Program-made: the position numbers and the translations under genes
Shown here: piece by piece, positions 1 to 45,836 of the stretch
Numbering within the stretch: the first letter of the stretch is position 1
Layout of the letters: every line of letters starts with the position of its first letter
The notes under the pieces: generated by a model
Told to the model about the DNA's origin: nothing
Database searches by the model: none
The model's input: only the letters and a program-made list of their open reading frames with translations
Assembly (NCBI GenBank): GCA_044892505.1
Contig: CM097882.1
Coordinates: forward strand, 407,092,001-407,156,000
Direction of reading: 5' to 3'
Origin: Schmidtea nova
Taxonomy: Eukaryota
Length of the DNA: 64,000 nt

Positions 1-94
1 CACCTTTAATTATCAACTCTTATTCTGTGAATCAAATAGGTACAGGTCTTTTAACTGTTGACTCTGACCTCAATAATCGCACATTATCGTTAAG

Positions 95-3000
95 ATGGAT
101 GCTGCCCATTTAAATTTAAATACTCTTTCAGTTCCTTCTCTTTTGCTTAGTAAATTAAATTCTATTATTTCTCAAATGAAATCTGTTAAAATTCAATTTT
201 GTATTATGGTGGAATTTGAAAAAGATGACGAATATCAGTCTTTTGTTATTTCAAATTCCGCCCGTTTTTGGAGTAATACCTTTGTTGATGAAGGTATTAC
301 TATACTAAATGAAAAAATATCACAAATGAACGAGAAGGGTTCGAATTGGAAAATAAATAAAATCGAATACATAAGTTTTGTATTGACCAAATATTCTGAG
401 ATAAGCAGGTTAAGCGGTAAACAATTTATTGAGACTCCTAAATCTCTTATTCATAAGAATTGTGTAATCAATGTCATCAACACCGACAATCTTTGTTTTC
501 TATATAGTGTTTTAGCAGCTAAACATTTCAATGAAGTTCCTGAAAATATTAGAAATCTACCTTCTTCTTACGATGTTTCATCACTTAGATATGACATTAA
601 TGACATGCCAATGAAGCTAAGTAACATTAGCCGATTTGAATTGTTAAATCCAGGATTATCAATTAATGTGTTATCTTACGACGAAAACGCATTAATTGAC
701 ATCAGTAATAATAGTGAAGTGATGAAACATCCGTATATAGATATTATTTATAAAAGCAAAATAGTTGGACAAACAGTGATAAACTTACTTTTGCTTGAAT
801 TTAAAAAAACATATAATTACATAGCTATTTATGATTTAAATAGATTTCTTAATTGCCGAAATAGTTCAATAACCCCAGTGAGAATTTATAATAAATGGTG
901 CCCTAGGTGTTTACATGGCTTTCGTAATACTGACACATTTAACCGTCATCGAGGTCTTTGTGATGCCAATCAAATAGGTACGACATTATACACTCTGCCT
1001 AAGAATAAATTATTGGAATTCACTGATTGGAAAAAGACTGTAACACCACCTTTTGTCATTTATGCCGATTTTGAGGCAATCTTACCTAGGGACACCAAGT
1101 ACTTTCAAAAACACTTGCCCATTTCAGCAGGACTTTTATGTATCAATAATTTCACTGGGGAGAAGTTTTATAAATCATTTTTTGGTACTGAATGTGTTGA
1201 CCGGTTTCTATACGAAATAGAACAAATTAGTAGAAAAATTGTAACACCTTATTATTATAAAAATTATGATAAGAAGATTATTTTAACTTATGCTGATATA
1301 ATAAATTTCCAAGCTGCGACACACTGCTACTTGTGTGAAAAAGTAATAGAAAATCCTGTTAAAGATCACGATCACTTTACAGGTGCTTATCTTGGAGCAG
1401 TGTGCAAAAAATGTAACATCTCTCGGCAAATTAGACACACTTTGCCTATAGTATTTCATAATTTAAGGGGATATGACTTGCATCATATCCTCAAATTCGG
1501 ATTATCAAAGTATGAATCTTGGAACATTAGTTGTGTTCCTGTCACTAGTGAAAAGTTTCTAGCACTTTTTGCGAGAATCGGATCACTCACAGTGAAGTTC
1601 ATAGATTCATACCAATTTGCAAGTGAATCTCTAAATAGTCTTGTTAAAACTTTATCATCTTTCCCACTTACTTCTTCGGAATTTATTGGGACAATTATCA
1701 CTAGTAAGGGAATTTTTCCATATGACGTAGCTACATCTTTAGAAGTCTTGAGGTCTACTCATGAATTGCCACCGATTTGGGAAGGTGTCGATATTGCTGA
1801 TTATGAAAAGGCAAAAGAAATATGGAGAGAAAATTCATGTACCTCATTATTTGTTTATATGATGGTTTACATGAAACTTGACATATTTCTGTTGACTGAT
1901 TATTTTCAACAATTTCGAGCAAAAAGTATAGCTCACAACAGACTTGAGCCTTTGAATTTTTTAGGCATACCAGGCATGAGCTGGTGTTCTGCTTTAATGA
2001 CCTTGGAATCTCCTATCGAGCTTTTGACCGATATGGAGATGTACAACTTTTTTGAAGGTGGAATCAGGGGCGGCCTCACTTTTGTCAATAAACATCATGT
2101 GCAAACGAGCTCAGATACAGAGTTGCTGTACATAGATATTAATAATCTGTATGGCTGGGCTCTTTCACAAAACTTACCGGACGGAGACTTTGTTTGGGTC
2201 ACGGATGACCACTTGCTTGAAAATATCTTGTTTGAATGCACTACAGTTTATTTATGTCAGCTTAGCTATGGTTATACCATAGAAGTTGATTTAGAAATAC
2301 CGGCATCTATTCACGACTTACTGGATGATTTGCCAGTAGCCGCTGAAAAGATGTGTGAGCCAGGCTCGAAGGTGCAAAAGCTTCTTTTGACGCATTTACC
2401 AAAGAAAAATTATGTGCTTCATTGGCGGCTTTTGCAGATGTTTTTGAAGTTAGGGGTTGTTGTGACCAAAATTCATCGTGCTATAAGATTTAGGAAAACT
2501 ACTTTATTTAAAAAATACGTGGACACGAATACTGCTTTGCGAGCTTCTTCCACCACGAAGCTGGATAAGAATTACTTTAAACTTTTTAATAACAGTCTCT
2601 ACGGCATACACCGTAGAGAATCTTAAAAAACGTATTAATTTAAGACTTTGCAATTCTGCACGTAAGTTAATTACCTATAGCAGTAGTCCATATTTTAGGA
2701 AAACCACAAAAATAGACGATAACCTTATCTCTGTGCTTTTAAGAAAGGAATCAGTATGTTTAGATAGGCCTAGTTACATAGGTCAAACGGTACTAGACCT
2801 ATCTAAACTTAGAATGTATGAATTACAGTATGTTGAGCTTCAAAAATATAGAAATGAATTTAATTGTAAAATAAATATAGTCGCAGGAGATACTGATTCC
2901 TTCTTCCTTGAAATCATTAATTGTAAACTGTCTGTTCTTTTGCCTGCTATGGTTAGGGATCAACTCTTGGATACATCAAATTATAATCCTAACCATCCCT

Positions 3001-3509
3001 TATTTTCGCATAATCTGGATTCTGTTATAGGTAAATTTAAGGACGAAAATAAGGGCTTCAAATATGAAGAGTGGGTTTTTCTTCGACCCAAATGTTATAG
3101 TTTACTTGGCGATGAAGAGAGTATGAAAGCCAAGGGTATATGTTTAGCTACTGCGGGGCTTCACCATTCAAATTACTTTGATTGTTTTAATAACAATAAG
3201 ATATACCAAGTCCCGCCGTTTCGAATATGTTCGAAAAATCACCAACTATATAGTATAAAAAATATAAAAACGGCACTCAATTGCAACGACGACAAACGCA
3301 ATTGGGTGTCTAAAAACAAAAGCTATGCATATGGGAATTATCGGGGAGAAAACACAATAATAAATGAAGTGCACAATAATGATGTTGATGATGATGATGA
3401 TGTTTGGGAGGATCGAGAATCAACAGAAGCGGTCAGAATTAATGCATACATTAGACGTATACATGAAGAATTAGCGGATCGGCCGTCTACATCAAATGGA
3501 ATATTTTAA
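95..3509 (+). pseudogene. pPolB: Protein-primed family B DNA polymerase (Polinton type), broken by a 1-nt insertion at about 2607
   Basis: Motifs YADFEA (ExoI), DHDHFTG..C..CN (EndoVII-like insert), FHNLRGYD (ExoII), YIDINNLYG (A), KLFNNSLYG (B), AGDTDS (C), RPKCYS. After NSLYG the expected TVENLKKRI continues in the frame of ORF 2733-3509. Frame 3 is open from the window start, so the gene probably begins upstream. Confidence 0.95.
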
Positions 3510-16304: not shown

Positions 16305-17450
16305 TCAGCAGCACCCACATCTATGTTTCGATCGATGTCTCCCACTGCGTCTAATGTCGGATTCGGCTGGTATTTTCTCTTGCGTAAGTTGTGCGTCTTT
16401 GACTTCCTGGATCTGCCGGCGGTCTGAGATTTGGTTATTGCTAACCAACGTCACATTGTCGTTCTGACTCTCGATGGTGATGTATGAAGTGTTGTTTCCC
16501 TTAGTCATGATAAATTCGCCCTCTTTTGGTTCCACGTCCTCACTGGCTTTGTGCCAGATGTCCTGGCCTTGTTGAAATTTAGACATTATCGGAGCTCTAT
16601 GCTGTCGCCCGAAAATAATCTCTGCGGGTGATTTCTCCCTCGATGTCGATGAAATTCTGTGGTGGAATAGGATTTTCTGTAGGAAGGTATTGAAATCACA
16701 ATGTATCCGAAGCTCGTTCCATCCTTTGAGAGCTTTCTTGACAGTTTGTACAGTCCTTTCTGCTGATCGGTTTGATCTAGGGAAGTATGCTGGCGATTCT
16801 AGTTTCATTGCTCCTTGGCTGTTGATCCACGCGTTTAGCTCATGCGAAGTGAATTCCTGGGCATTATCCGAGACGAGGCATTCCGGGACTCCAAACCTGG
16901 TGAAAACAGTTCGTAAACACTTGATCACTGACTTACTCGTTTTATCGGATGTCTTGAAGGCTTCAATCCATCCCGAACCAGCGTCTACAATAATGAGCAC
17001 GTCGCCCACCTCTTTGATGTGGGCCCAATCCATATGTACTCTTTGGAATGGTTTCGCTTCTGGCCATTTGTGAATGCTCTTCTCTGGGCGAGGATGTATG
17101 TACTTGCAAATTGCGCATAACCTAAAGAAGTTGTCGATGTCTCCGTGGATTCCAGGCCATCAAGATGATGCCTTTAGCCGGTAAAATGTTGATTGTAGAC
17201 CAGAATGTGTCTCATTGTGTGCTATGTCAATGCATTTCTTCCTTAGTTTTGGTGGAATGAATAGACGTGACCCGTGGTAAAGCAGTCCATCTTCAATTGT
17301 TAGTTGGTCTGATATTTTCTTGAATGGCATTTCTGATTGTGAGCACTTCGACCAATTGCATTTCTTGATGCGACGCATGATATCTCTGGCCAACTCGTTA
17401 AGCGATGTTTCCAATCTGACCTCTGAGGCATTTAATAAGCCCTCGCTAAA
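16305..17450 (-). pseudogene. Ty3/Gypsy integrase fragment
   Basis: H..H...C..C zinc finger, then MDWA/IVDAGS, VSDNAQEF and SAERTVQTVK (DDE core); 5'-truncated at a (TA)n tract. Confidence 0.92.
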
Positions 17451-20389: not shown

Positions 20390-22188
20390 TTATTGAAGGA
20401 AGGCTGAAGGAGATAGCGGACACTCATCATCTGACCCTTCAATGAATCTTATTCTTTTGCTAGGCTGAGAGTCTAGCGTCGATGTTGATGGTTGGGTAGG
20501 TGATGTTGGCTTTTGAATGATAGGAGCTAAAGGTTGCGCTACTGGCTTAAAATACGATGTCAATGATGTTTACTTCATTGAGCTTCTCTTTCTCTCTCGA
20601 AGAATTTCTGTGTAGCATGCGATGTCATTTAACAATGTTTTTCCCACTTTCGAACTTCTTTCAAAATAGTTGCCAATCTTTTCAAACCCCTCCACAACCG
20701 TATGCAGTAGGCCTACATAGCGTTCTAAATCTTTTGTTGCTATTTCTGATAATACGGACTCATCGTCGTCATCAACTGCTGATTCAGCTTCTAATTATAG
20801 CCTATGTTGTTCATCTAGCAAAAGTAAATCCTCATCTGTTAAAGGTTCCTCGTGAAATGCCAGCAATTGCGTTACATATTCACTAGCAACTTCAAGATCT
20901 AAATCTCTTGTCATATCTACCACCTCTGTTATTATATTAAGCTCTTCGACTTCAAAGTCATCCATAAGGGTTGGAATCAATTTTTTTCAAACTCCTTTGA
21001 GAGTTGGATCTTTGACTTCCTCCCATGAATCGCGAATGTTTTAATGGCATCTAAAATATTGAATGCTTTCCAGAAGGCTTTCATTTTATTTTTCTTTGGC
21101 TCATTGGGATTCTTGGAACTATCGATTGCGTGAATAGCCTTAGCAAATGTTCGGCGTGTATAATAGGCTTTAAAAGTTGAGATCACTCCTTGGTTAATGG
21201 GCTGCAGAATATATGTAGTATTAAGAGCAAGAAAAATAACTTTAATATCTTTGTACATTTCCATTATAACTCTTTGGTGGCCGGGAGCATTATCACTTAG
21301 TGTCAGAATTTTAAATGGAATTTTTTGCTCTTAACAGTATGCCTGGATGGTAAGCTTAAAATATTCCGTGAACCACTTCGCAAATAGATTGGCAGTCATC
21401 CAGGCTTTATTGTTTGCTTGAAAGTAAACAGGTAGGCTAATTTTGGAAATATATTTCAAGGCCCTAAGATTTTGCGAATGGAATATTAACATGGACTTTA
21501 ATTTTAAATCACCAGACGCATTCGCTCCTAAAATAAGAGTCAGCCTATCCTTGCTAGCTTTAAAACCTGGCATTGATTTTTCCTCTTTAGCCATGAAGGT
21601 TCTAATCGGTAGCTTCTTCCAGAATAGGGCCGTTTCATCAACGTTAAAAATTTGTTGCTTGGTGTAGCCTCCTTCAATTATTTCCGCTAGCTTAGCTGGA
21701 TATCGTTCTGCAGCTTCCATATCAGAACTAGCAGCTTCACCTTGCACCTTAATATTGGGTAGTTGGCTTCGTTCTTTAAATCTCAAACCAGCCTCTGCTA
21801 GCTTCAAACTTTTCGTCTTTAGCTTCGTCCCCTTTGCTAGCCTTCATTGAGTTAAATAGTGTTAGGGCCTTGGATTGAATTGGACCTTGACTTAATAGAA
21901 TGTTTTGACTAGTTTGATCATCAATCCACAAGACTAACGCTTTCACCATTTCAATTATACTGTTATCACGTTTTCTAATCATTGTTGTGTTCACTGGAGT
22001 AACACTTTTAATTTCTTTTTAAAATTCATCTTTAGAGTTAATAACGGTACTCACTGTTTGCCGAGCTAGGCCTAGCCTACGGCTTATATCAGTGTTCGAA
22101 AGACCTTGCTCATGCAATGTTATCATTTCTAACTTTTCAGCCAAAGTAATTTGCTTCCTACTTTTCTTTTCCTAGGTTTAGGGGACAT
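20390..22188 (-). pseudogene. Tigger1/TIGD1-like pogo transposase, near full length with stops and frameshifts
   Basis: [75 protein letters not shown] and IPTLMDDFE, ending in a KRIRFIEGSDD tail. Confidence 0.92.
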
Positions 22189-31841: not shown

Positions 31842-32267
31842 TTAAACACTCAAAATGCATGTAGATATTGCATTTTGTATATTTATTTTTGGATTAAATG
31901 ATTTTATCATCAAAGCCTCACAATTCACACGTTCATAATAATTTTTAAAACCCCTAGAAAGTATTTTGAAATTAGAAATATCAATGCTCTTCTTGCAAGT
32001 CTTATTATGCTCAATAATGTTACTCTTTCCGCTCTTTCTGGCATGTTCTTGAACTCGAGTACAGAGATGACGGACAGTCTCTCCAATGTATGTGGCATTA
32101 CACCCATTACAAGTAAAACGATATACGAGATCAGAACACAGACCAAATGGCGTCACAGATTTATTACTGAACATGTCCCGAACTTTGCAAGACTTAGAAA
32201 TCATTTTAACATTAGTATTTCCAATATATTTTATAATAGATTTTTTAAAATTTACAAATCCCTCAGA
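31842..32267 (-). pseudogene. Penelope linker and GIY-YIG endonuclease (3' half of the ORF)
   Basis: VYRFTCNGCNATYIGETVRHLCTRVQEH...EALMIK..NPKIN. Confidence 0.92.
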
Positions 32268-32725
32268 AATAGGTAGATGTGTGGAGCCGGGAACAAAGAC
32301 ATTATGACTCATTGCGTGGGTGGCGTGGGCAAAAAAAGAACAAAGACCCGGGGGGCAGAATTTTTATGACTCATCGATGACTCATAAAAAAAAATTTCAA
32401 ATTTTTTTTCGCGCCAAAATTTTTTTCAAATTTTTTTTCGCGCCAAAAATTTTTTTCAAAATTTTTTTTAACACAAATTTTTTAACACAAATTTTTTTAA
32501 CACAAATTTTTTTAACACAAATTTTTTTAACACAAATATGAGTCATCGAAAACATTGCAATACATGTGCAACGTAAACAAAGACTTTGCAATACATATGC
32601 TATTGATATGCAACGTGAACAAAGACTTTGCAATACATGTGCAATTGATATGCATCGTGAACAAAGACTTTGCAATTCATGTGCAAGATAAACAAAGACT
32701 TTGCAATCTATGTGCAAGTGAAATT
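32268..32725 (+). repeat. Left TIR of Polinton 2
   Basis: Inverted match to about 44255-44606; contains TGA(C/G)TCA sites and about 45-bp ACAAAGACTTTGCAA subrepeats. Confidence 0.92.
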
Positions 32726-33404
32726 TAATAATAATAATAATAATAATTTATAATATTAATAATAATTATAATAATAATAATAACTTATANNNNNNNNNNN
32801 NNNNNNNNNNNNNNNNNNNNNNNNNNNNNNNNNNNNNNNNNNNNNNNNNNNNNNNNNNNNNNNNNNNNNNNNNNNNNNNNNNNNNNNNNNNNNNNNNNNN
32901 NNNNNNNNNNNNNNNNNNNNNNNNNNNNNNNNNNNNNNNNNNNNNNNNNNNNNNNNNNNNNNNNNNNNNNNNNNNNNNNNNNNNNNNNTAATAATAATAA
33001 CTTTAAAAAAATGATAATAAACTTATAAAAATTTTTAAAAAATAACTAAAACAAAAAATAATTCCATAGTTTTAATTGTTTGCGCAATTTATTACAATCA
33101 AAATTTAAAGGCCCTAAAGAGGACCGTTATTTCTTTCTCAATCTGTTATCTTTTCGGATTTCTTTTCGGTTTTCTTTTCGGTTTCTGTTTTTACTTTTTT
33201 CTTTTCGGTTTTTATTTCTGATTTCTAAATAACTTTTTATATTTTTACAATCATAAATTGTGGCCCTGAAGAGGGCCGATTGTACATTCTCATATCTTTT
33301 TTTGTTGGTTTTTTCGGCTATTTCTTTTTGATTTTTTTTAATATATCTTTTTTTTAATATATCTTTTCTTTGGTTTTCTTTTTTTTATTTCATCATCATT
33401 CTCT

Positions 33405-34256
33405 TCATCCAAAGTAATCGAGAGCTGTAGGATCATGGAAATCGTAAGGATCTTGTTGATATTGCTGTTCTTGCTCTTGTTGTTGGTGTTCTTGCTGGCC
33501 ATCTCGATCACCTACAAATATAGTGGTGTCACCCCCCCCCATGTAATGCCCATACGCGAGACTTTTATTTTTATCTACCCAGTTCCTCTTATCATCCCTA
33601 CAAGACAAGGCCCTCTTATTACTTTTTACACTAAAAAGTTGATGATTTTTAGATGTAATTCGGAATTGGGGGACATTATATATTTTATCATTTCGGTAAC
33701 AGTCAAGATAAGACTGGTGTGTAAGACCAGCATCTTTCAAGCAGATCCCCTTAGCTTTCATGCAGGCCTCGTCTCCCATCAAGCTATAACACTTAGGTCT
33801 CAAGAAAACCCACTCATCATACAGTAGACCCTTGTTCTCATCCTTAAATTTACCAATCACAGAATCAAGGCTCCTACTATACAATGCATGATGAGTGTCA
33901 TAATTAGATGTGTCCAAAAGCCTATCTCTAATCATTGCAGATAAAAGAGTGTTGAGGTCAAGATTTTTTATTTCGATTGCATCTCCTTTGGACTTTTGTT
34001 TACTCTTAATTATGTAATATTTTAAACTTTCATAAGACATTTCCGACGTTATTTCTTCTGGGATCGACGTGGCTACGTCCTCTGGTAGTACTGCCCACGC
34101 GTGATGGAATTTGGTTACGTCGTTGCTGATGGACGCAATGCAAAATTGAGATTCCATTTGTAGGAACCACGTTGAAGACTGTGAGTAGTAGAACGTCAGA
34201 GCCTTTATTCCGATTCGTGAAATCGCGTGGTTGCCATTGTTGTGAATTTCTGACAT
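33405..34256 (-). pseudogene. Chimeric ORF: Gypsy gag N-terminus fused in frame to the pPolB C-terminus
   Basis: First ~85 aa (STWFLQMESQF..ISNDVTKFHH..VLPEDVA..YESLK) are gag-like; the remainder aligns with 2900-3380 (LLDTSNY..VIGKFKDE..RPKCYS..KAKG). Motif C is absent. Confidence 0.85.
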
Positions 34257-34294
34257 ATTAAAACTAAAATAATACGATAATCAAATTATATTAA

Positions 34295-34508
34295 CCTTCC
34301 TCGGTTCCTAGAAAAATGGTAAAATTTTCAAACTCAAATATCTCGAAAAATACATGTCAGATTAATCTGAAAATTAAAATCTTTGGCAAACTTGACATTC
34401 TGAATAATATTTTACAATAAAATTTTTTTTGTAAAAAATTTCAAAAATAATGTTATGAGCAAAATTAATTCATTTTTGGGTTAAAATGACCCGAAGAGCT
34501 GAGGAAGG
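34295..34508. mobile_element. piggyBac-type MITE
   Basis: TTAA-CCTTCCTC ... GAGGAAGG-TTAA. Confidence 0.8.
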
Positions 34509-35411
34509 TTAATATTCAAATTTTCTGTCAATCGTTTATTCTTCTTATTTAAACAATTTTTTTATAAAATGTTTTATTTTACAATTTAAACATCTTATCA
34601 AATATTTAAATTGTATTATAAACATTACATTAAGAGTAAAATATTATTTAACTTATTCTTTAATAGATATTTTAAAGAAAATAATAATATATTTTCATAA
34701 TAATAACTTTAATTTTTTTCTTTTGACAAGTATTTATATTTAAAATAATAGGTAATTGTTTAAAAACATTTACATATTATATTAAATATAAATTTTTAAT
34801 ATCTATGCATAATATATTTTCATAATAATAACTTTTATTTTTTTTTCTTTTGACAAGTATTTATATTTAAAATAATAGGTAATTGTTTAAAAAACATTTA
34901 CATATTATATTAAATATAAATTTTAATATCTATGCATAAAAAATATTCAAAGTTTTCTATATTAATATTAAAAATAATCTAATTTTTATAATTCATAATA
35001 AAATCATCATTAAAAATTCATTAAAATTCATTAAAATTGATCTTCATTATTAAAATATAAAAATATCATCATCATCATCATCTTCTTCATAAAAAATAAA
35101 TCTTCATATCATCTTCTTTTTAATTATAAAATTTATTCTTCATTTCATCGTAATATCATCTTCTTTTTAATTATTCTTCATTTCATCATAATATCATCTT
35201 TTTAATTATTCTTCATTTCATAATAATATCATCTTCTTTTTAATTATTCTTCATTTCATAATAATATCATCTTCTTTTTTTATCATAAAAATTAAACTTT
35301 ATCATAAAAATAAAAAAAAATAATTATATAAAACCATTCCCGTAGGAATTAATTAAAAATAATAAAAATATTATTATTATTATTATATAAAAAAATAAAA
35401 ATAAAAATTAC

Positions 35412-35753
35412 ATTTCTTTGAGTTTTTAAAACCCTGACCATTGAAATTCGGGACATCATTCATATCAGTCGGAACATCATTCATATCAGTCGGGGCATCG
35501 AAAGTTATGTCATCATCATTCAGCGCATCCATATCAACATTATTTTCTACAAATTTAATAATAAATTTAAAATAAATTAAATGATATTAATTTTACCAAT
35601 AACTCTATTTTGTTTTCCGAGTCCGTTTCTCGATTGTCCGGCCATACTATTTGCTAAATTAATAACTGAAATAAATAAATAAATAATATAATAAAATAAA
35701 ATTTTACCATTAAGTCCTCCAGCGATCCTTTCCGATACATTTAAATTGTTCAT
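35412..35753 (-). CDS. Small spliced Polinton gene of unknown function (first three exons)
   Basis: Exons 35753-35708, 35665-35597 and 35546-35412. The 42- and 50-nt GT-AG introns are both phase 1 and restore one frame: MNNLNVSERIAGGLNVINLANSMAGQ...PTDMNDVPTDMNDVP. Confidence 0.6.
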
Positions 35754-36003
35754 TTTGCATATTCGGTGAAAATTGTTTGAAATTGTTTAAAAAATTTGTA
35801 AGTAAAAAGTGACGAAATAATGCAAGTATATACTATATAAAGATGAATTTTATTAACCATCCAATCACAATCGATATAGGATAGGTAAATACATACTGCA
35901 CACTCAATATACTTTGATTATGTGTTTGACGTCACGATACTTGCTTTGTATCGTGACAAAGACATGATATCACGCGTTTATCACGCACTGATCATGCACC
36001 TAG

Positions 36004-36114
36004 TATGTGTGTTAAAATTCACTCACTAAGTATGTGTGTTAAAATTCACTCACCAAGTATGTGTGTTAAAATTCACTCACCAAGTATGGGTGTTAAAATT
36101 CACTCAATAAGTAT
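36004..36114 (+). repeat. 27-bp tandem repeat, 4 copies, in a Polinton intergenic region
   Basis: TATGTGTGTTAAAATTCACTCAC(T/C)AAG starts at 36004, 36031, 36058 and 36085. Confidence 0.95.
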
Positions 36115-36379
36115 GATTCATGTCTTTGTTATATTGCACGATGCATGTCGGATGCATCGTTACAAAGACACTACGTGACTAAAATGTATATGAAATAATT
36201 GATGGGTGTAGATGCAGATGTCGATACACCCAAATAAATTTACATGTGAAATATTGAGTGTATGCATGCGTGTCTGCATGCAATTTCTTTATGATTATCG
36301 AAAGATGGATGTTAATCTGCAAATTGGATGTGAATTCTGCAAGTTTATAAAAATAATAATAAAACACAAAATAATACAT

Positions 36380-36790
36380 TTATTGTTTTAAATAATCTAC
36401 AACAGCAGACAAGCACCCTTTATAGGCACACATACAATGATCTTTATAGGGACATGAGATGTTTTCTGGAACATATTCAACTTCTTTAAAATTATATTTA
36501 ATTAATCTTAATTTCGGGAAATACTTCTTCAAAACATGCAACTTTTCATTATCTGTAACATAGAAAATAGCTCCTTTATCTGTAATATCATCCATAATAC
36601 ATTTTGGGCAAAAATAATCTTGTCCTTCAAACGATTCTATACGATCAGGCCAGAAAGATAAATCACTGTATATATAATACTGAGGTCTGAAAATATTATT
36701 GACATTCATAATACATAATTCCTTAATTGTTGTTCCACCCATTTCATTATAATCATAAATATCGATAAAATAACAAGACATTTTTTTCAA
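36380..36790 (-). CDS. Polinton accessory protein, possibly DEDD/RNase H-fold-like with a C-terminal Cys/His cluster
   Basis: Intact 136-aa ORF: FIDI...IKELCI...FYV...EK...L...CP..DHC.CA. Confidence 0.55.
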   Translation of the reverse strand: MKKMSCYFIDIYDYNEMGGTTIKELCIMNVNNIFRPQYYIYSDLSFWPDRIESFEGQDYFCPKCIMDDITDKGAIFYVTDNEKLHVLKKYFPKLRLIKYNFKEVEYVPENISCPYKDHCMCAYKGCLSAVVDYLKQ

Positions 36791-36814
36791 ATAAAATTTA
36801 TTAAAATAAATTTT

Positions 36815-37150
36815 TTATAACATTGATTTTAGCCATGCAAGGCAATGTTCACCACAAGTGATTGTTAAAGGATGTTGATACCGAATTCTATTATACACAA
36901 TAGGTTTACCAATAGTTTGAAGTTTTCGAACAAGTAAATTCGGATAATAATATCCAAAGGGATCAAATACATGTATTCGAACTGGTTTCACGTAAACTGC
37001 AATCCAATGTTCACCGCCCAAAGTAGATGTCTGAGTATTTACAATGATGGCTTGATTCATTTTCAAATAACGTATTTTATCTATTTACTCCAATAAATTG
37101 ATTTCCCAATAGTTTTTTACCTTGTTGTAATACCTGAATAGAACTAATTA
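36815..37150 (-). pseudogene. PRO: Adenain-like cysteine protease
   Basis: IVNT...GEHW, FDPFG, YQ....TCGEHC; frameshift near the N-terminus (FIGV / IDK). Confidence 0.92.
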
Positions 37151-37182
37151 AATATAAATAATTAAAAATAAATAAGCTCAGC

Positions 37183-38330
37183 TCAAACCAGTACTGTTCG
37201 ATTGGAAGTAATTTGTACTTCATTTTCAAAAACTCCATATATAATTACATGAACCGGTTCATCAATGGGTTTTGCAAACTTTATATCAAGTCGTAAATTT
37301 CCGTTTTGAGGGATTTGACTTTGATTCAAATCAAAATCGGTAGCGAGCACAAATGTAAAGAATGGATATTTAGTTTTAAATTCATCCAGACTTATACCAC
37401 AATTTAAGTTTTTATCCAAATATTCTAGATTTCTGACAAGACTTTGCATATATGTGGCACTAAAATTATCATTTTCAAAATCTTGAGTTTAAGTTTTTCG
37501 AAAATCGGTATTTTTCGATAACGATAATGAAGTCACATTGAAATGTTTGAATGTAGGTGCAGATTCAGCATATGATCTGTTATATTGATTTTCAGTTTGA
37601 AAAGCCACAAGAATGAAATTAGGCATTCTTCTATCTCCAAATATTTGCTCCTTGTAAAATGACGATGCCCTTTTACCGATTGCAAACGAGACGATTTCTT
37701 TGGATTTTAGTGGATAAATTGCATGTTTGTTAAATCAATTTGATGACCGGCCAAAACTGAAGATTCACATCGAACTCTTCGAACCATTAATTTAGCATCT
37801 ACTAATTGGATTATTGGTTTCCCAGCTGCAGATTTCAATGATAATGAAGATTCAGATCTCTTCAATCTAATATGTACATTAACTCCGGGAAGTAAATATT
37901 TAGGTTGATCCATAAAATCGAGTTGTAATGATGAACACATGTTGAAAAGTTTAGATCCCTTGATCCACTTTTTCCTATCATCAGATGAACCATATCCCAT
38001 TGGAGTAAGACATGTTTCTTTTGTATCGCTAGTATAATTTAAAACAGTTACGATTATGGCCTTGTGTGCATATGTATTGTTTCCACCCTCAATTTTTATA
38101 TTATTAAATCCAAGAATCGCATCTTTGAAGAGTATGAAACAGCTAATTATTAGGCACTACATCACTCGCATCAACTAATTAATTTTTATCTTTATCTAGA
38201 ACCTTGACAGTAACGGATAATAAAGTATCGTTCAAATCCAAATATTCGGTTGCCGATCCATTAATGTAAAATTCAACATCATTTCTACTATCTGTAATAG
38301 AATTAATTGGAAAAACATCTTCGATAATCC
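37183..38330 (-). pseudogene. MCP: Double jelly-roll major capsid protein (N-terminus missing, stops and frameshifts)
   Basis: FPINSIT..VEFYINGS..EYLDLNDTLL, QPKYLLPGVNVHIRLKR, MPNFILVAF, TFKHFNV, GNLRLDIKFAKP...IIYGVFENEVQI...R.V. Confidence 0.9.
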
Positions 38331-39009
38331 CAATGTTTTAACTAGGTTATTGTCAAAGGTTATTTCGCTAACATCTGCATTCAAACTGAATTTGAAGTAA
38401 GTATCATCTACCAATTCCAACGATTTAAAAATACTTGCACAATTTAGAATAAAATATGATTGCATTTCATCCAGTTTCGATATGTATAAATTATCGGCAA
38501 ATGTATGTATAAATGCAGTATCAGCCTTGTACTCGATCTTTATTCTAATTTTTTCAGTAACTGGACCATCTATACCATATGACGGTAACGGTATCTTGTA
38601 TGTATCTGTAGGACTTACAATACTCTGTTTCGTTAATCCCATTCTTTTTGCCATTGCCAAAGTATCAAATGTTATAGTGAAGGAAAAATAATCACAGGTA
38701 AAATAAATAGATTGCCTATCGCTACTCATTTGAGCAATATCATCGGCAGGATTAGATATATCAATTTCACAAAATTGATTGTTAATAATCAAATTTTTAT
38801 ATTTTGTATGTATAGTTTTCTTTTTGTACCGAATTTCTGATTTACTGTAAAATGGAAATGGATTATACACAAATGTAGTCTAAGAGAGCGACTTCCCAAA
38901 TCCCGTCTAAATATATCGGATTTTGGAGATTGACCATGAAATTACTGGAAGTATTATCTGGATGTATATCTGGACAACTGTTGCTAGGTAGAATCATATA
39001 AAAATTCAT
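38330..39009 (-). pseudogene. Minor capsid (penton) protein, C-terminus lost
   Basis: MNFYMILPSNS...PDNTSSNF.V.LQNPIYLDGIWEVAL; its ATG overlaps the integrase TGA (ATGA). Confidence 0.85.
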
Positions 39010-40050
39010 TTTACTAGGTTTTTTGATGATATCCATGATGGTTCTTTATATCCATGCAACTTGACATAGTATTGTTTATCCTTACCCACCATTTTAGATT
39101 TCAGGATTTTTTGAATTCTAAATATTGTCGGCGGGGGAATAACTTGTAATTCATGTTCGTAGAATTTTCCGCTGATTATATTGTTATCAGAGTCAGAAAT
39201 AGTATACATGACAGGATTCTGGACTGTGTTGACTTTCGATATTTAATATACCTCATCACTCCAATTATTATCAAAATTTTTAATGAATGGCGATGCACTA
39301 ATTTTGCTAATTCGAACATGATCACCAATTTTATATTTTGGTTTCTTTATTTTCGTATCACTCAAAATATTTTCAGTATCAACTACTTCTGCCGGTTTCC
39401 TACCATTTATACCCGGATGAGCACTATGATTATAACTATGAATCATTTGAGGTAAAAAATTAATCCAGGTTTTATTGCCTTTAAAAACAAAGTATTTTTT
39501 CAATCGATCACGCAAAGTTCGATTAAATCTCTCGACATGAGCTGCTTTGAATTGCGAGAATACCGAATAATGATTTATTCCCTTGATAACTTCCTTGACT
39601 TTACTGTTGTAAAATTCCTTTCCTAAAAATTATTAAATATATAAATTTATATTTAAATTTACCCAAATCGGTTTGTAAATTAGTTGGCCGATCCTTTTTC
39701 ATCATTGTCTTGATAGCGATTGCCCTGTCATTAGCTGATTTAGATTTGACTGCAATTGCTCGAGCAAATCTACTGTAAACATCAATACATGTTAAAATAT
39801 ACTTGTATCCCTTGTTAAAAGCAGAATACGGAATCATTTCCATCAAGTCCATTTGCCACAAATCATTGATTCTATATGTTTTATATGCTCGAGTTGGAAA
39901 CCGTTTCAACATCGGTTTGTTTAGACTGTATGCAAGTTGCCCCGATAACCAACTTTGTGTCTGTTGTTTCTACTTCTGTACTTTTTTCCTTAGCTTTTCG
40001 ACTCCACCGAAACCGGCGTCGTCTTTTAGGTTCGTCCAGATCTTCTCCAT
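39006..40050 (-). pseudogene. INT: Retroviral-like DDE integrase with a C-terminal chromodomain; one 40-nt intron; frameshifted
   Basis: GFGGVEKL, WQMDL, QTDLG^KEF (after splicing out 39623-39662), AAHVERFNRTL, YKIGDHVRI, GKFYEHELQ, FRIQKIL...YYVK..GY..SW. Confidence 0.93.
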
Positions 40051-40105
40051 TACAACAAGAAGATTTAAAGTTTAAATTTAAATTAGGTAATGATTGACCC
40101 ATTGT

Positions 40106-40645
40106 TTATGACCTTTGTCCTAATAAACCAGCACCTCCCAATAATGATAAAGCTAGTGGTAACAATGCGGCAATAAATCCTCCTTGTTGTTTATATATTA
40201 TTTTGCGAATAAGTTTTCGATTTTTTGTTTTTACAAGCGACAACAATGGTTTTTTATGCTTGTTCAAAACACGTCGATTAGATGGACTTAGATGCATTTT
40301 ACCTCTCACTACTTTAATCAAAATAGCGAGTAAATCATCGATAACGTAATTAGGAAACGATTGAAGAATACCCATAGCGGAAGGGGCTTTAAGCAATGCA
40401 TTAAAAAACGGTAAACTCCGATGATGTATTTGTTTAGCATTAGATTTCAAATTAATTGGAATTAGATTTTGTTTGGGAAAATTATCCATAATTAGTTTTT
40501 TCGATGGCGTATAACTTGTTTTCGAAACTGATTTTGAAACGGATTTCTTTGACAATTTCTTTTTTCGACCTGCTTTCTTACCTATTTTCATTGATTTTCG
40601 AGCTTTTATCAATCGTTCAAACTTTACTCGAGATTTCATTAACAT
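40106..40645 (-). CDS. Conserved basic Polinton protein with an adenovirus pX-like C-terminus (putative core protein)
   Basis: Lys-rich N-terminus, then VRGKMHL..L.KHK..L..L...KQQGGFIAALLPLALSLLGG. Confidence 0.7.
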   Translation of the reverse strand: MLMKSRVKFERLIKARKSMKIGKKAGRKKKLSKKSVSKSVSKTSYTPSKKLIMDNFPKQNLIPINLKSNAKQIHHRSLPFFNALLKAPSAMGILQSFPNYVIDDLLAILIKVVRGKMHLSPSNRRVLNKHKKPLLSLVKTKNRKLIRKIIYKQQGGFIAALLPLALSLLGGAGLLGQRS

Positions 40646-40665
40646 TATTATTACTGTAAATCAAT

Positions 40666-41268
40666 TTAACTTTGTTTATAAAACATTGCTCCTTCCTTGT
40701 TAAAAATATCAGTTCTAACTCTTAAATCATCACTACATTGTTGAGTAAAATCCAGGAAAATATATCCATGAGGAGATTTTGTAGCATCTTGAAAGGCCTC
40801 CATCAAAAAGTTACGATTTGAAGGATAAGCTTGTCTTGCCAGAAAATCAATAACTGTTGCATCTCTAGGATTTTTAAACACAACAAGATATTGAACATTT
40901 AAATTACGGGTTCGATGACTACCGCCCTGATGAAATAAATTCTGAGTTATAAAAATAACAGTAACACCTTTATGTCTACTGATTTTCGTAAATAAATTAT
41001 TGAAATCCTTTTCTTTATTTGCTTCTTGATACAAGTCATCAATGATAATCACATCACCTTGAAGCAATCTAGATGACCAGTTTTTATCGAAACCTTTTAT
41101 GATTGTCATTTTTATTTTACAAAACTGATCTTGAGTCATTCCGCTTTCGTCGTCAGCTCCCCTATGCCAATAAATTTTATTGAATTTTGATTTAAATAAT
41201 TTCGATTGCAATAATTTACAAACAAATAAAGTTTTTCCACTCCCGCTCGGACCAACAATTTGAAACAC
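40666..41268 (-). CDS. ATPase: A32/FtsK-like genome packaging ATPase
   Basis: GPSGSGKT (Walker A), IIIDDL (Walker B), SRH...FITQNLF, FKNPRD, HGYIFLD; start codon not resolved. Confidence 0.95.
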   Translation of the reverse strand: MFQIVGPSGSGKTLFVCKLLQSKLFKSKFNKIYWHRGADDESGMTQDQFCKIKMTIIKGFDKNWSSRLLQGDVIIIDDLYQEANKEKDFNNLFTKISRHKGVTVIFITQNLFHQGGSHRTRNLNVQYLVVFKNPRDATVIDFLARQAYPSNRNFLMEAFQDATKSPHGYIFLDFTQQCSDDLRVRTDIFNKEGAMFYKQS

Positions 41269-41388
41269 TGCATCATTTCCTAATTCCTTATTTAAAAATT
41301 ATATTAAATTATTATTATTATTATTGTTTATATTTGTTTTAAATACTCGTTCTCAAAGTAATTGTTTCATTTAAAAATATTTTCAGTA

Positions 41389-41818
41389 ATGATTAGAAAC
41401 ATTAATTACAAGGGTAAGACAGATGTATCACACATGAAATTAAAAATACTTTAAAAAATACTTTAAAACAGGAAGATATAGAATAATGGGATGCAGGGAA
41501 TTTATTAGTGACGAATAAGTTGAGTTTTACGATTTAACAATACAATCGATAACTGTAACTGCGGATTTAGGATTTATTTGTAATTTAAATGAATTATCTA
41601 AATTGATACCGTGTGTTTACAAGCCAGAATTATTTCCAGCTTTGAGATATATCAAATATAATCCCATGTGTGTAAATATATTTGCAAGTGGGAAATTAGT
41701 CATATTAGAATTAAAAAACAAAGACTATTCAACTATAGTTGATGATATTATTAACGATATAAAATCAATTATAGAAGATAAAGCCTTTGTTGATTTCATA
41801 CTAACATGTGAATCATGA
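41389..41818 (+). pseudogene. TATA-binding-protein-like gene
   Basis: MIRNINYKGK...YFKTGRYRIMGC (repeat 1) and IQSITVTADLGF..NLNEL....YKPELFPAL.....NIFASGKLVI (repeat 2). In-frame TAA at 41516 and a disruption near 41445. Confidence 0.8.
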
Positions 41819-41844
41819 CTGCAATATTGATGCACTCTAAATGC

Positions 41845-41975
41845 ACGATTCTGATTGGTTCTGTGTGTATTTCGAGAATAAAGAAATGTTGTGCATGCTT
41901 GAATCTGATTGGTTCAGTATGTATCATTTTGCAAATCATGTGTGTTTCTTTCATATGTATATATACTATGAACAA
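41845..41975 (+). promoter_or_regulatory. Probable promoter: two CCAAT boxes and a TATA-like run
   Basis: CTGATTGGTTC occurs twice and TATATATA once, upstream of the ATG at 42001. Confidence 0.45.
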
Positions 41976-42000
41976 ACTGACATAGTTTATATCTACAATT

Positions 42001-42592
42001 ATGTCATTAACACAAACTTTGATTAAAAGCCGTAAGGATTTTAATTATTTATTTATCATATTTAATATTATTTCTTTTTTTAGAAAAATTAATGAATGTG
42101 ATATACAGGAAGTTGGAGGAGCTATTTCCGAACCTGATGCCGGCTCTGGTTTACACCGCTCTAGAAATTTTCCCCTATAAGATAATGGTCCTCACTGATA
42201 TCGACATCAACCAGATCGTGCTGGACCACATGACGGATCAGAATACCGATCTACCCATTGTGACAGAGCACATTCTCTGTGCTTACCAATGTGGTAGCTG
42301 TGTTGAACGCATCCGGCAGTTCAACATCTGGGTTTTGAGGAACTCCCTCAAATTATTCGATACACGACAATTGGAAAAAGTTGAGGAGGAGGAAGAGCAA
42401 ATAAAAGAAACATGGCCCAACTCTACTCCAGAACCGATTGATAATTCAATCAATATGGAAGCACCAACAATAGATGGACCGTTTCCATTAGAATCACCAC
42501 AATCACCTGATTGTGTGGAATGTCATCGAAAGATAGATGATAATGAAGGAAAAGAAGAACAAGAAGAAGAAGAACAACAACAACAACAATGA
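42001..42592 (+). CDS. Spliced Polinton accessory gene (Cys pairs, acidic/Gln-rich tail)
   Basis: Exon 1 is 42001-42031. The GTAAGG...TTTAG intron (42032-42083, 52 nt, phase 1) joins in frame to ORF 42092-42592. Confidence 0.65.
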
Positions 42593-43071
42593 TCAATTTG
42601 GTGTGTGTTTATTATTATCAGTTACTTTTTATGTAATAACTTTTTAGTTTTAGTTTTTTGTCATTTTAGTTTAGTTAAATAAAAGTTTTTTCATTTTAGT
42701 TTTTGTTTTCAGTTATTTAAATAATAATAATAATAATAATAATAGTAATAGGTTTTTTATTAAACATTTAAAAATTTTTAGTAGTAGTAGTTTTTATTAA
42801 CTATATATAAAAAAAGTAAATAGTTTTTATTAATTATTAATTAATTAGTAAGAAAGTGTTTTTTATGAAAGATAATAATTGTGAAATAAATAAATAAATA
42901 CATAACAACATTAGTATCAGAACATTGCGATCAGAACCCTGGAAGCAGAACCTATTCTGTGATGGTTTTTTTATGTGCAAAAGCTTCATACTTGAACATA
43001 TACATAATTATTAAACATGCATGCATACAACAAAGACATTGCAATACAAATGCATAGTGTGTGCAACATAA

Positions 43072-43572
43072 ATGCGTGAATATGATTGGACAAAGACATC
43101 CAGTCATCAGTATAAATACAAAGTCATTTTTTCAAATATTGTCACAATCTACAACATGCAATCACGAAAACAAAATTTAGATATCAGCGAAGAAAAAATA
43201 ATTCAGACTGAGGTAAAACCAATTCAGATGTACTATGACAGCCGAATTTATTTTTTGGTTAATGAAATACCGTTTCGATTATCTTATCCGGTAAAGTTAA
43301 CAAAGTCTTTATATGATAGTCTTGCTGTAATTATTGATAAACAAGATATTATAGCATTAAATCAATTATTTTCAAAAATCAATGTTAATTTAACTTGTAA
43401 AGAAACCATGTACATCAATAACAGAAAAACTCGGTTCCATGATGCTTTTCAAACTATCGAATTCGTGGATCAAGAACACTGGTTCGTTACAATAATTATT
43501 CAAGGGTACAAGATTGGTAAAAAGGATGTTTTTACTCCAATTTGGAGAGTTGACAATGCAAGATACGCATAA
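43072..43572 (+). CDS. Polinton accessory protein, weak OB-fold/SSB resemblance
   Basis: Intact ORF with beta-rich C-terminus FVTIIIQGYKIG...TPIWRVDNAR. Confidence 0.5.
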   Translation: MREYDWTKTSSHQYKYKVIFSNIVTIYNMQSRKQNLDISEEKIIQTEVKPIQMYYDSRIYFLVNEIPFRLSYPVKLTKSLYDSLAVIIDKQDIIALNQLFSKINVNLTCKETMYINNRKTRFHDAFQTIEFVDQEHWFVTIIIQGYKIGKKDVFTPIWRVDNARYA

Positions 43573-43637
43573 TTGTTATTTAATAAATATTTTAGTATGA
43601 ACAATTTTAGTTTTTATATTAGTTTTTTGTTTTTAAA

Positions 43638-44237
43638 ATGAAATTAAATATGGTTATTTTATTGTTATTATGTGTTCACAATACTGAAGGAGAACAATCT
43701 TTGGAAGATTGTCAATCATCCCATCCGTTTAGAAGACAAGATAGTACTTGCGCGAGTTATAATGAAATATGTGTTTACTCAAACATTGAATGCAGTCAAA
43801 TAAAATTACAATGTGATCAATGTCCTTCGAAAAATAATTTAATTAATAATGATATTGAAAAAATGATTACCAAAATAATGATGAAAATAGTTGAAAGATT
43901 AAAATCTACAAATCAAACTTTTCTTAAAAAACAATATGAAGTCAGATACCAAAATCAAACAGTTGAAAACGAAATAACAACCATTGTATTACATTATATA
44001 AGTATATTTATATTAATAATTATACTGATATTAGCGACATCGATACGGTTAGAGAAAATATCTAATATTCCAAAGAATAATATTCCGAAAAATAATAATA
44101 ATAATAATAATAATATTCCGATGAATAATATTACAATGAATAATATTCCTATGAATAATATTCCGAGTAATAATTTAGATGTAAATAATTTTGAAACGAA
44201 ATTTTGTACACGCACACAACAATATATTTATAAATAA
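43638..44237 (+). CDS. Type I membrane protein with a Cys-rich ectodomain
   Basis: Signal peptide MKLNMVILLLLCV, six Cys in about 40 aa, a transmembrane stretch IVLHYISIFILIIILILATSI and an NNIP-repeat tail. Confidence 0.65.
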   Translation: MKLNMVILLLLCVHNTEGEQSLEDCQSSHPFRRQDSTCASYNEICVYSNIECSQIKLQCDQCPSKNNLINNDIEKMITKIMMKIVERLKSTNQTFLKKQYEVRYQNQTVENEITTIVLHYISIFILIIILILATSIRLEKISNIPKNNIPKNNNNNNNNIPMNNITMNNIPMNNIPSNNLDVNNFETKFCTRTQQYIYK

Positions 44238-44254
44238 ATTTTATTTTGTCTTTG

Positions 44255-44606
44255 TCTTTGTATTTTCAATGTCTTTGTTAATATTGCACATGAATTGCAA
44301 AGTCTTTGTTCACGTTGCATATCAATTGCACATGTATTGCAAAGTCTTTGTTTACGTTGCACATGTCTTGCAATGTTTTCGATGACTCATATTTGTATTA
44401 AAAAAAAAATTTTGAAAAAAAAATTTAAAAATTTTTGGCGCGAAAAAAAAATTTGCAAAAAAAATTTTGGCGCGAAAAAAAATTTTTATGAGTCATCAAA
44501 AAAATTCTACCCCCCGGGGGAGGGGGTCTTTGTTCTTTTTTTCCGCCCACGCCACTACTCAATGAGTCATAATGTCTTTGTTCCCGGCTCCACACATCTA
44601 CCTACT
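44255..44606 (-). repeat. Right TIR of Polinton 2
   Basis: Inverted match to 32268-32725, with fewer subrepeat units; ends ...CATCTACCTACT. Confidence 0.92.
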
Positions 44607-45300
44607 CTCAGAAAACGGTAAAACTATAACAGAACCAATGCAATCATTCAAGTTACTTTTATTTATTTCATTATTATTATTACAATCAACACCATTATTC
44701 ATTCCCATAACAACATCACTTGCTTCAATCAAAGAAGCACTATCAAAAGTATTAAACGGATCAACACCAGGAGAAATTTTTTCATCAATCACATTCAACT
44801 TATTAATACATTTATCAACAGTTTCACTCACCATTCGTTGCAAGATACATTTTGAATATCCATTATTCTGTAGTAATTTAAGTAATTTATCAATATTATT
44901 TACAGATTTAGAATAAGTTGACGGCAATGTCCAAGAACGATAAACCAATCCCCTTATCATATTTCTTTTATATTTAAAATCACAAAAACTTTCCGGTGAT
45001 GTATACAAACCAGTATCTGTTGTTTTCCTATAAATTTCGGTTTCAAAATGTTTCTCTTTCTTTTCAATCAACAAATCAAGAAAAGATATTTTAGAATTAA
45101 TTTCTTCTTCAAAAGTAAATTTAATATTTTTATGCAAATTATTCATATAATAGAAAAAAGGCTCAACATGTTCTTTATTCTTAAATACAAGAAAAATATC
45201 ATCAACATAACGTTTATATACTAAGGGTTTATTCACACTACAATTTATAAATTCATTTTCTAAACTTGACATAAAAATAGATGCCAGTGTAGGAGCTAAA
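44607..45300 (-). pseudogene. Penelope reverse transcriptase, C-terminal part
   Basis: LAPTLASIFM, RYVDDIF, NIKFTFEEE, ISFLDL, YRKTTDTGLY, NGY. Confidence 0.93.
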
Positions 45301-45836
45301 GAAATTAATTCTAAAATATCATTTCTTGATTTGTTGATTGAAAAGAAAGAAACATTTTGAAACCGAAATTTATAGAATCAAAAATTAATTACCACAACCA
45401 TATGGATAATCTACTGAACTAACAAGAGCAAATTTATATACTTTCTCTCATGGGTTCGGACTATTTCTCTGAAATTGCTTAATTACTGTTTTTCAATTGG
45501 TTCGTGATTTACATCTTCTTTAGGTGAAAATAATTCCTTTAAATATTTTCTACTGTTCTTTATTTGTAATTCCTTATCCATTTGATTTCTGTTCTAGTTA
45601 TTTCCTTAGTTTTTATTGTTTTTCAATAATTTTCTTTCGTCATTGTTCGGTTACAATTTTTTTTCAGATATTGTTATTTGAATTTTTTCTATAGCAATTT
45701 TTTAAATTTGTTAATCTGTTTTGTGTTTTGTGTTTGATTTTATATTTTCTTTCATTTTCGTTTGATAATGTTTAATTATAATTTAATATAAAAAATAACA
45801 ATCATACAATAGAAAAGGGGGTCGCTATGCGCCTAA

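Follow-up and report, generated by a model that had tools for sequence, protein, structure and literature searches.

Can the integrase gene of a Polinton be broken inside its catalytic motif by a spliceosomal intron, and would integration of the element then depend on its host? This question is raised by a 40-nt segment (5% G+C) on the minus strand of the 64,000-nucleotide stretch of Schmidtea nova DNA analysed here, referred to below as the window. The segment starts with 5'-GTAAAT, ends with TTTTAG-3' and enters the integrase motif QTDxGKEF after the first base of the Gly codon (phase 1), two residues past the second catalytic Asp. Translation of its flanks gives ...NLQTDL at the end of exon 1 and KEFYNSKV at the start of exon 2, the frame of which is open through VERFNRTL. 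The preliminary description had claimed a 40-nt GT..AG segment splitting this motif, and its position, ends and frame after removal are confirmed. When one homologue (P0005) is aligned to retroviral integrase cores of solved structure, its QTD and ER motifs fall on the second Asp and the Glu. Among at least 120 full-length homologues, 116 are matched by both exons, and in all of these a single residue separates the exon ends; removal of the segment restores colinearity with these intronless proteins in every case. Since the search for full-length homologues is biased toward uninterrupted genes, the comparison speaks to colinearity and not to frequency.

The interrupted gene lies in a whole but decayed Polinton copy (Table 1), flanked by a 6-bp target duplication, CTCAGA (32262-32267 and 44607-44612). 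In keeping with Polintons/Mavericks, the element combines this duplication and terminal inverted repeats with a retrovirus-like DDE integrase (PF00665), an ATPase and an adenovirus-type protease. The capsid-candidate ORF of a related family (family C) gave a sub-threshold Pfam match to DJR-like_dom (E 0.0057). Most of the likely polymerase is absent from the window copy, only the C-terminal remnant being left; the long ORF of the sister families, which we take to be the polymerase from its motifs, gave no naming match in Pfam, PHROGs or PDB.

Table 1. Predicted features of the Polinton copy that carries the interrupted integrase gene (window coordinates).
Feature	Position	Strand	Basis
Whole Polinton copy, 12.3 kb, decayed, with terminal inverted repeats	32268..44606	-	Repeats and target duplication
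Likely protein-primed polymerase, C-terminal remnant	33537..33977	-	69% to ORF of neighbouring element
Adenovirus-type cysteine protease, part	36815..37084	-	Peptidase_C5, E 3e-6
Likely major capsid protein, 5'-deleted, frameshifted	37183..38331	-	67-76% to family-C ORF
Conserved ORF 3' of integrase, frameshifted and truncated	38319..39075	-	Homologue of 362-aa ORF of family C
Integrase exon 2, catalytic Glu in VERFNRTL and C-terminal part	39006..39622	-	rve_3, E 0.0068 (under cut-off)
Putative intron, phase-1 GT..AG, 40 nt	39623..39662	-	Sequence, homologue colinearity, genome junction patterns
Integrase exon 1, predicted start ATG 40050, first and second Asp	39663..40050	-	PF00665, E 1.3e-8
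Small Met-Gly ORF, 73 aa, other frame, overlaps integrase start	39881..40102	-	Conserved across families
Conserved basic ORF, between ATPase and integrase	40106..40660	-	ORF conservation
A32-type packaging ATPase, without intron-like break	40666..41298	-	Pox_A32, E 1.3e-6

The small Met-Gly ORF occurs with a length of 59-96 aa in 11 of 11 genome copies tested, from the family of the window copy (family A) and from families B, C, D and E, and also in four of five metagenome relatives. It has no match in Pfam and one faint match in PHROGs; as a guess, it could encode a myristoylated peptide that is part of the virion or serves in entry. The ORF begins upstream of the integrase start and could damp integrase translation. 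The Polinton itself sits within a retroelement (flanks 31842-32267 and 44607-45377), with an RVT_1 reverse transcriptase on one side. The opposite flank holds a stretch that appears GIY-YIG-like by its motif, and the retroelement is presumably of the Penelope type. Elsewhere in the window, unrelated DDE elements (16305-17159 and 21331-21843, both minus strand) contribute an rve/DDE_3 integrase and a piece of a DDE_1 transposase.

The window copy is itself no longer functional. In-frame stops at 39972-39970 in exon 1 and at 39245-39243 in exon 2 mean that its integrase is dead with or without splicing. Both stops were considered as tiny introns and rejected, the closest GT..AG spans measuring 12 and 28 nt. 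The breaks in its capsid, protease and polymerase ORFs were also considered as introns, yet they look like decay, and the sister copies align across them unbroken. With these stops, the capsid frameshifts and a polymerase that is mostly missing, the copy is decayed, and the finding therefore concerns the family rather than this copy. The warning that ORF-based annotation would call the integrase dead stands in part: such a call is misleading for the dominant clade described below, but correct for the window copy because of its two other stops.

In order to place the segment in its family, the genome (1.25 Gb in 283 contigs) was searched for further copies. Family-A loci were collected by a DNA search (30) and by a protein search with exon 2 only (30), and three duplicates were removed. 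Sibling copies lacking the 40 nt, which the preliminary description had named as the observation that would speak against an intron, were not found: all 57 distinct family-A loci carry the segment, in lengths of 40-46 nt that fall into all three frame classes. The ends are GT..AG in 54 of the 57, and the three exceptions are single-copy changes. Both exons are free of stops and frameshifts in 29 of the 54 loci that are fully covered.

Genome-wide junction patterns extend this result beyond family A. A pattern with splice signals gave 9,510 matches, against none in the reversed control, and is therefore not a chance occurrence. When any insert of 30-60 nt was allowed, 10,573 matches were obtained, while the intronless junction gave 175, again with no match to either in the reversed controls. 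Among the matches listed for the any-insert pattern, read by eye, 100 of 100 inserts start with GT and end with AG and are 40-48 nt long; also among these, the donor bases at +3/+4 differ between subfamilies. Intron-bearing junctions thus outnumber intronless ones by about 60:1 and make up about 98% of matched junctions, for patterns of slightly unequal length that leave decayed copies uncounted. At roughly one integrase junction per 120 kb (about 10,000 in 1.25 Gb), the genome has an exceptionally large Polinton load.

Selection on the two exons was assessed from variants shared by three or more copies, which were taken to have arisen in multiplying lineages. In family A, shared variants gave a pN/pS of 0.06 in exon 1 (5 non-synonymous, 22 synonymous) and of 0.08 in exon 2 (20 non-synonymous, 58 synonymous), compared with 0.50 and 0.79, respectively, for single-copy variants. 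Omission of 63 query codons gave 0.13 (39 gap-free loci of 48 matched), and in family B values of 0.07 (27 of 29 loci) and 0.06 (17 of 29 loci) were obtained. Across both exons the range for shared variants is 0.04-0.13, which corresponds to strong purifying selection. Because these values are low on both sides of the insert, selection must have maintained the protein sequence of both integrase halves at a time when the insert was already there.

Thirty loci from the beginning of contig C1 were also translated without splicing. In 28 of them a stop follows the second Asp after 3-20 residues; in the other two no stop occurs within 100 codons, and the motif would carry an insertion. Among the family-A loci, two with long open frames were considered as intron losses, a reading that was rejected, as the segment is there in stop-free versions of 42 and 45 nt. 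Splicing would be a simple way to reconcile constraint on both exons with the stops of the unspliced reading. In the ten codons before the donor, synonymous sites are invariant in 5 of 7 cases, compared with 29 of 88 elsewhere (Fisher p 0.09, post hoc); this extra conservation would fit an exonic splicing element of either sign.

At least four families (A, B, D and E) carry an intron at the same position of the integrase, with differing lengths. In family B, represented by the neighbouring element upstream, it is 43 nt long and present in 30 of 30 loci, recovered with a query that included the intron; in family D it measures 42 nt and contains an in-frame stop, and in family E it measures 44 nt. 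The flanking exons are 80-93% identical in protein among these four families. The intron interiors, on the other hand, are no more similar than shuffled sequences in any of nine between-family pairs (lowest, 14 of 200 shuffles). A position and ends that are kept around an interior that is free is what selection for splicing gives. Introners would place one sequence at many sites, and at the one position compared here the interiors are unrelated between families. Also, when core genes were compared in families B and D, an intron-type break was seen in the integrase only.

Several other properties of these families were recorded. The family-B Polinton, recorded at window positions 77-3509 and at locus L061, ends at the window start; an endonuclease VII domain of the HNH type is present in its likely polymerase and recalls the HNH-bearing pPolB2 of nematodes and oomycetes in the part of the source available (bioRxiv 10.1101/2023.08.22.554363). 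Family D (locus L152) has two tandem paralogues of the ORF 3' of the integrase, as do the metagenome loci L185, L186 and L192. The intronless family C is often found in mirror pairs about 5-7 kb apart (for example L150 and L151, at 17.33-17.35 Mb of contig C2), in which the block of ATPase, integrase and capsid occurs twice, inverted, with 99-100% identity. Within the 15.5 kb examined for such a pair a polymerase match was absent, and these pairs are apparently a palindromic Polinton derivative without polymerase.

The distribution of the intron was then compared with integrase phylogeny, in trees rooted at the midpoint. In a quick tree of 64 rows, in which the break was read through as X and 10 of 41 genome rows (6 of them intronless) were dropped as too decayed, 28 intron-bearing rows fall on one side of a branch with an SH-aLRT of 97. 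A more careful tree of 33 rows places 11 intron-bearing rows in one clade with support of 94/94, just short of the starred threshold. The intronless families of the genome form a separate group in the trees. One intron-bearing clade among intronless relatives points to a single gain, which is the simplest reading of these sequence comparisons. The same intron was not met in other sources: the 18 metagenome loci recovered by the exon-2-only search, on multi-gene contigs or fragments, are all intronless, and a search of viral contigs returned no relative. Fifteen intronless junctions that depart from the main family-C pattern were checked for precise removal of the intron from family A, B, D or E, and no such case was found; one is a family-D copy with a partial deletion, two belong to family C, and the others represent older lineages that are at most about 83% alike, one of them having no flank match.

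As for the origin of the intron, the proto-splice site TTAG|GTAA is found at the intron position in 5 of the 18 metagenome loci, and duplication of such sites is a route of intron gain described in the portion of the literature source consulted (PMC2891723). The intron may have been born when the Leu-Gly-Lys codons, which are able to spell both an acceptor and a donor, underwent a short tandem duplication, with subsequent drift of the interior. Inspection of the intron interior revealed no visible remnant of a duplication, and this origin is therefore put forward as a hypothesis.

Taken together, sibling copies, selection and the comparison of families support the two main claims of the preliminary description, that the segment is a spliceosomal intron and that the integrase of the family depends on host splicing, the splicing itself being deduced from these comparisons. 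A working spliceosomal intron in the dominant Polinton clade is very likely. As the intron lies inside the active-site motif of the integrase, the element likely needs the host splicing machinery in order to integrate. Most probably it is an ordinary U2-type intron, gained once in the ancestor of the dominant clade and removed more or less constitutively. The host spliceosome would remove it whenever the element is transcribed, and the integrase of active copies would be translated from a spliced nuclear Pol II mRNA; unspliced RNA would yield a product lacking the catalytic Glu and would be a substrate for decay. Contigs from four sequencing runs of one study, of unrecorded kind, cover the whole stretch in a DNA-like manner; none of the 15 joints listed, of 113, spans the intron, and these contigs speak neither for nor against splicing. 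Myosin VIIa of the host has its best hits, at about 55-64%, in many animals, which marks the host as an animal. A heuristic homology search of host myosin genes gave 42 short candidate introns, of which 37 are 42-62 nt long, AT-rich and bounded by GT..AG. The minimum among the host candidates is 42 nt, while element introns measure 40-48 nt, with family A at or just under the lower edge. The family-A introns of 40-41 nt are shorter than all 42 of these heuristic host candidates, which could make their splicing inefficient.

The preliminary description had further proposed a tissue or stage switch as in the P element. In such a reading a real intron would stay in the transcript in most cells and be removed only in the germ line, in stem cells or at a particular stage, so that capsid and ATPase would be made broadly and integrase only where an insertion is heritable. 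A precedent is IVS3 of the Drosophila P element, for which tissue-regulated retention through an exonic silencer, leading to a defined 66-kDa repressor, is reported in the part of the source available (PMC7776569). The two systems are alike in that the recombinase requires removal of an intron, as would be the case for the Polinton, but tissue regulation and a defined repressor are features shown for IVS3 and not for the Polinton intron. Besides the short family-A intron, three observations are consistent with regulation: the comparison of core genes in families B and D showed an intron-type break in the integrase alone, the intron has been kept through four families, and synonymous sites preceding the donor are slightly more conserved (p 0.09). 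Against this, the interior is unconserved between families, the donors are ordinary GTAA types, and the product of retention would end variably or, in two of the 30 loci, not within 100 codons, unlike a defined repressor; also, no function is required to explain an intron that was acquired a single time and then kept. Regulated retention is therefore considered unlikely. The further proposal that the intron is a lifestyle switch, licensing integration only in germ line or stem cells with the virion genes left free of introns, and that it helped the clade to reach about 10,000 copies and its 60:1 predominance, is doubtful.

Alternatively, the segment could be an unspliced, inactivating insertion in non-autonomous copies that are mobilised in trans by the intronless integrases of family C. 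Such integrases exist in the same genome (the 175 intronless junctions), and the window copy is deleted and probably a non-autonomous derivative. However, a passenger gene would drift, while the low shared-variant pN/pS holds on both sides of the insert, the GT..AG ends are kept as the interior is randomised, and intron-bearing junctions are in large excess, all of which makes this explanation very improbable. An assembly artefact, for which the AT-rich sequence with its short, error-prone runs might speak, is hardly credible, and neither is a ribosome that bypasses the segment or shifts frame over it: about 10,000 independent places are involved, the four interiors are unrelated, the inserts fall into every frame class and include in-frame stops, and the GT..AG ends do not vary.

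An ordinary intron at this site would depart from the published picture of Polintons. The earlier claim that their core genes are described as intronless is borne out by the parts of the literature consulted (PMC8097293; Widen et al. preprint). Vertebrate Mavericks are reported there as intronless, citing Kapitonov and Jurka 2006 (PMC8097293), and the core genes of nematode Mavericks are called intronless, with introns in cargo genes only (bioRxiv 10.1101/2022.07.12.499685). The element described here resembles these animal Polintons/Mavericks in its terminal inverted repeats, 6-bp duplication, rve integrase, A32 ATPase, adenovirus-type protease and likely capsid and polymerase, but differs from them, as portrayed in the sections of the two sources seen, in a core-gene intron fixed across a clade. 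In the portions available, four further articles (PMC6431247, PMC11296320, PMC12220804, PMC8502044) and two preprints (bioRxiv 10.1101/2023.08.22.554363 and 10.64898/2025.12.11.693146) report no spliceosomal intron in a Polinton core gene, and a search of the openly readable literature, supplements and Repbase aside, found no inherited spliceosomal intron in a Polinton integrase.

Two other systems are comparable. Polinton-like proviruses of dinoflagellates hold spliceosomal-intron-type sequences, namely mobile introners that, according to the text available, were mostly gained after integration (PMC11957031, PMC12166617); in contrast to these, the present intron occupies one position, appears to have been inherited vertically through amplification and involves no mobile sequence common to the families. 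Ginger1 transposons, as described in the accessible part of the source, have Gypsy-like DDE integrase/transposase genes with 1-4 GT-AG introns (PMC2836005), and are thus similar in having a DDE integrase-type gene broken in this way; they differ in being cut-and-paste elements without capsid, ATPase or polymerase genes.

The finding matters for how these elements are counted. Descriptions of Polintons, and screens for them, treat the core genes as ORFs free of introns. A census built on ORFs would take the dominant clade, with about 98% of matched junctions, for integrase-dead and would see just the rare intronless family. Intron gain in a mobile element is also sampled unusually well here, with thousands of copies and four diverged families. 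Moreover, a conserved spliceosomal intron implies that the integrase is expressed from nuclear transcripts of a host polymerase, which bears on the debate over a nuclear-transposon or a helper-dependent viral way of life of Polintons, and the exon-exon junction would show, as a simple assay on RNA, where the element can integrate.
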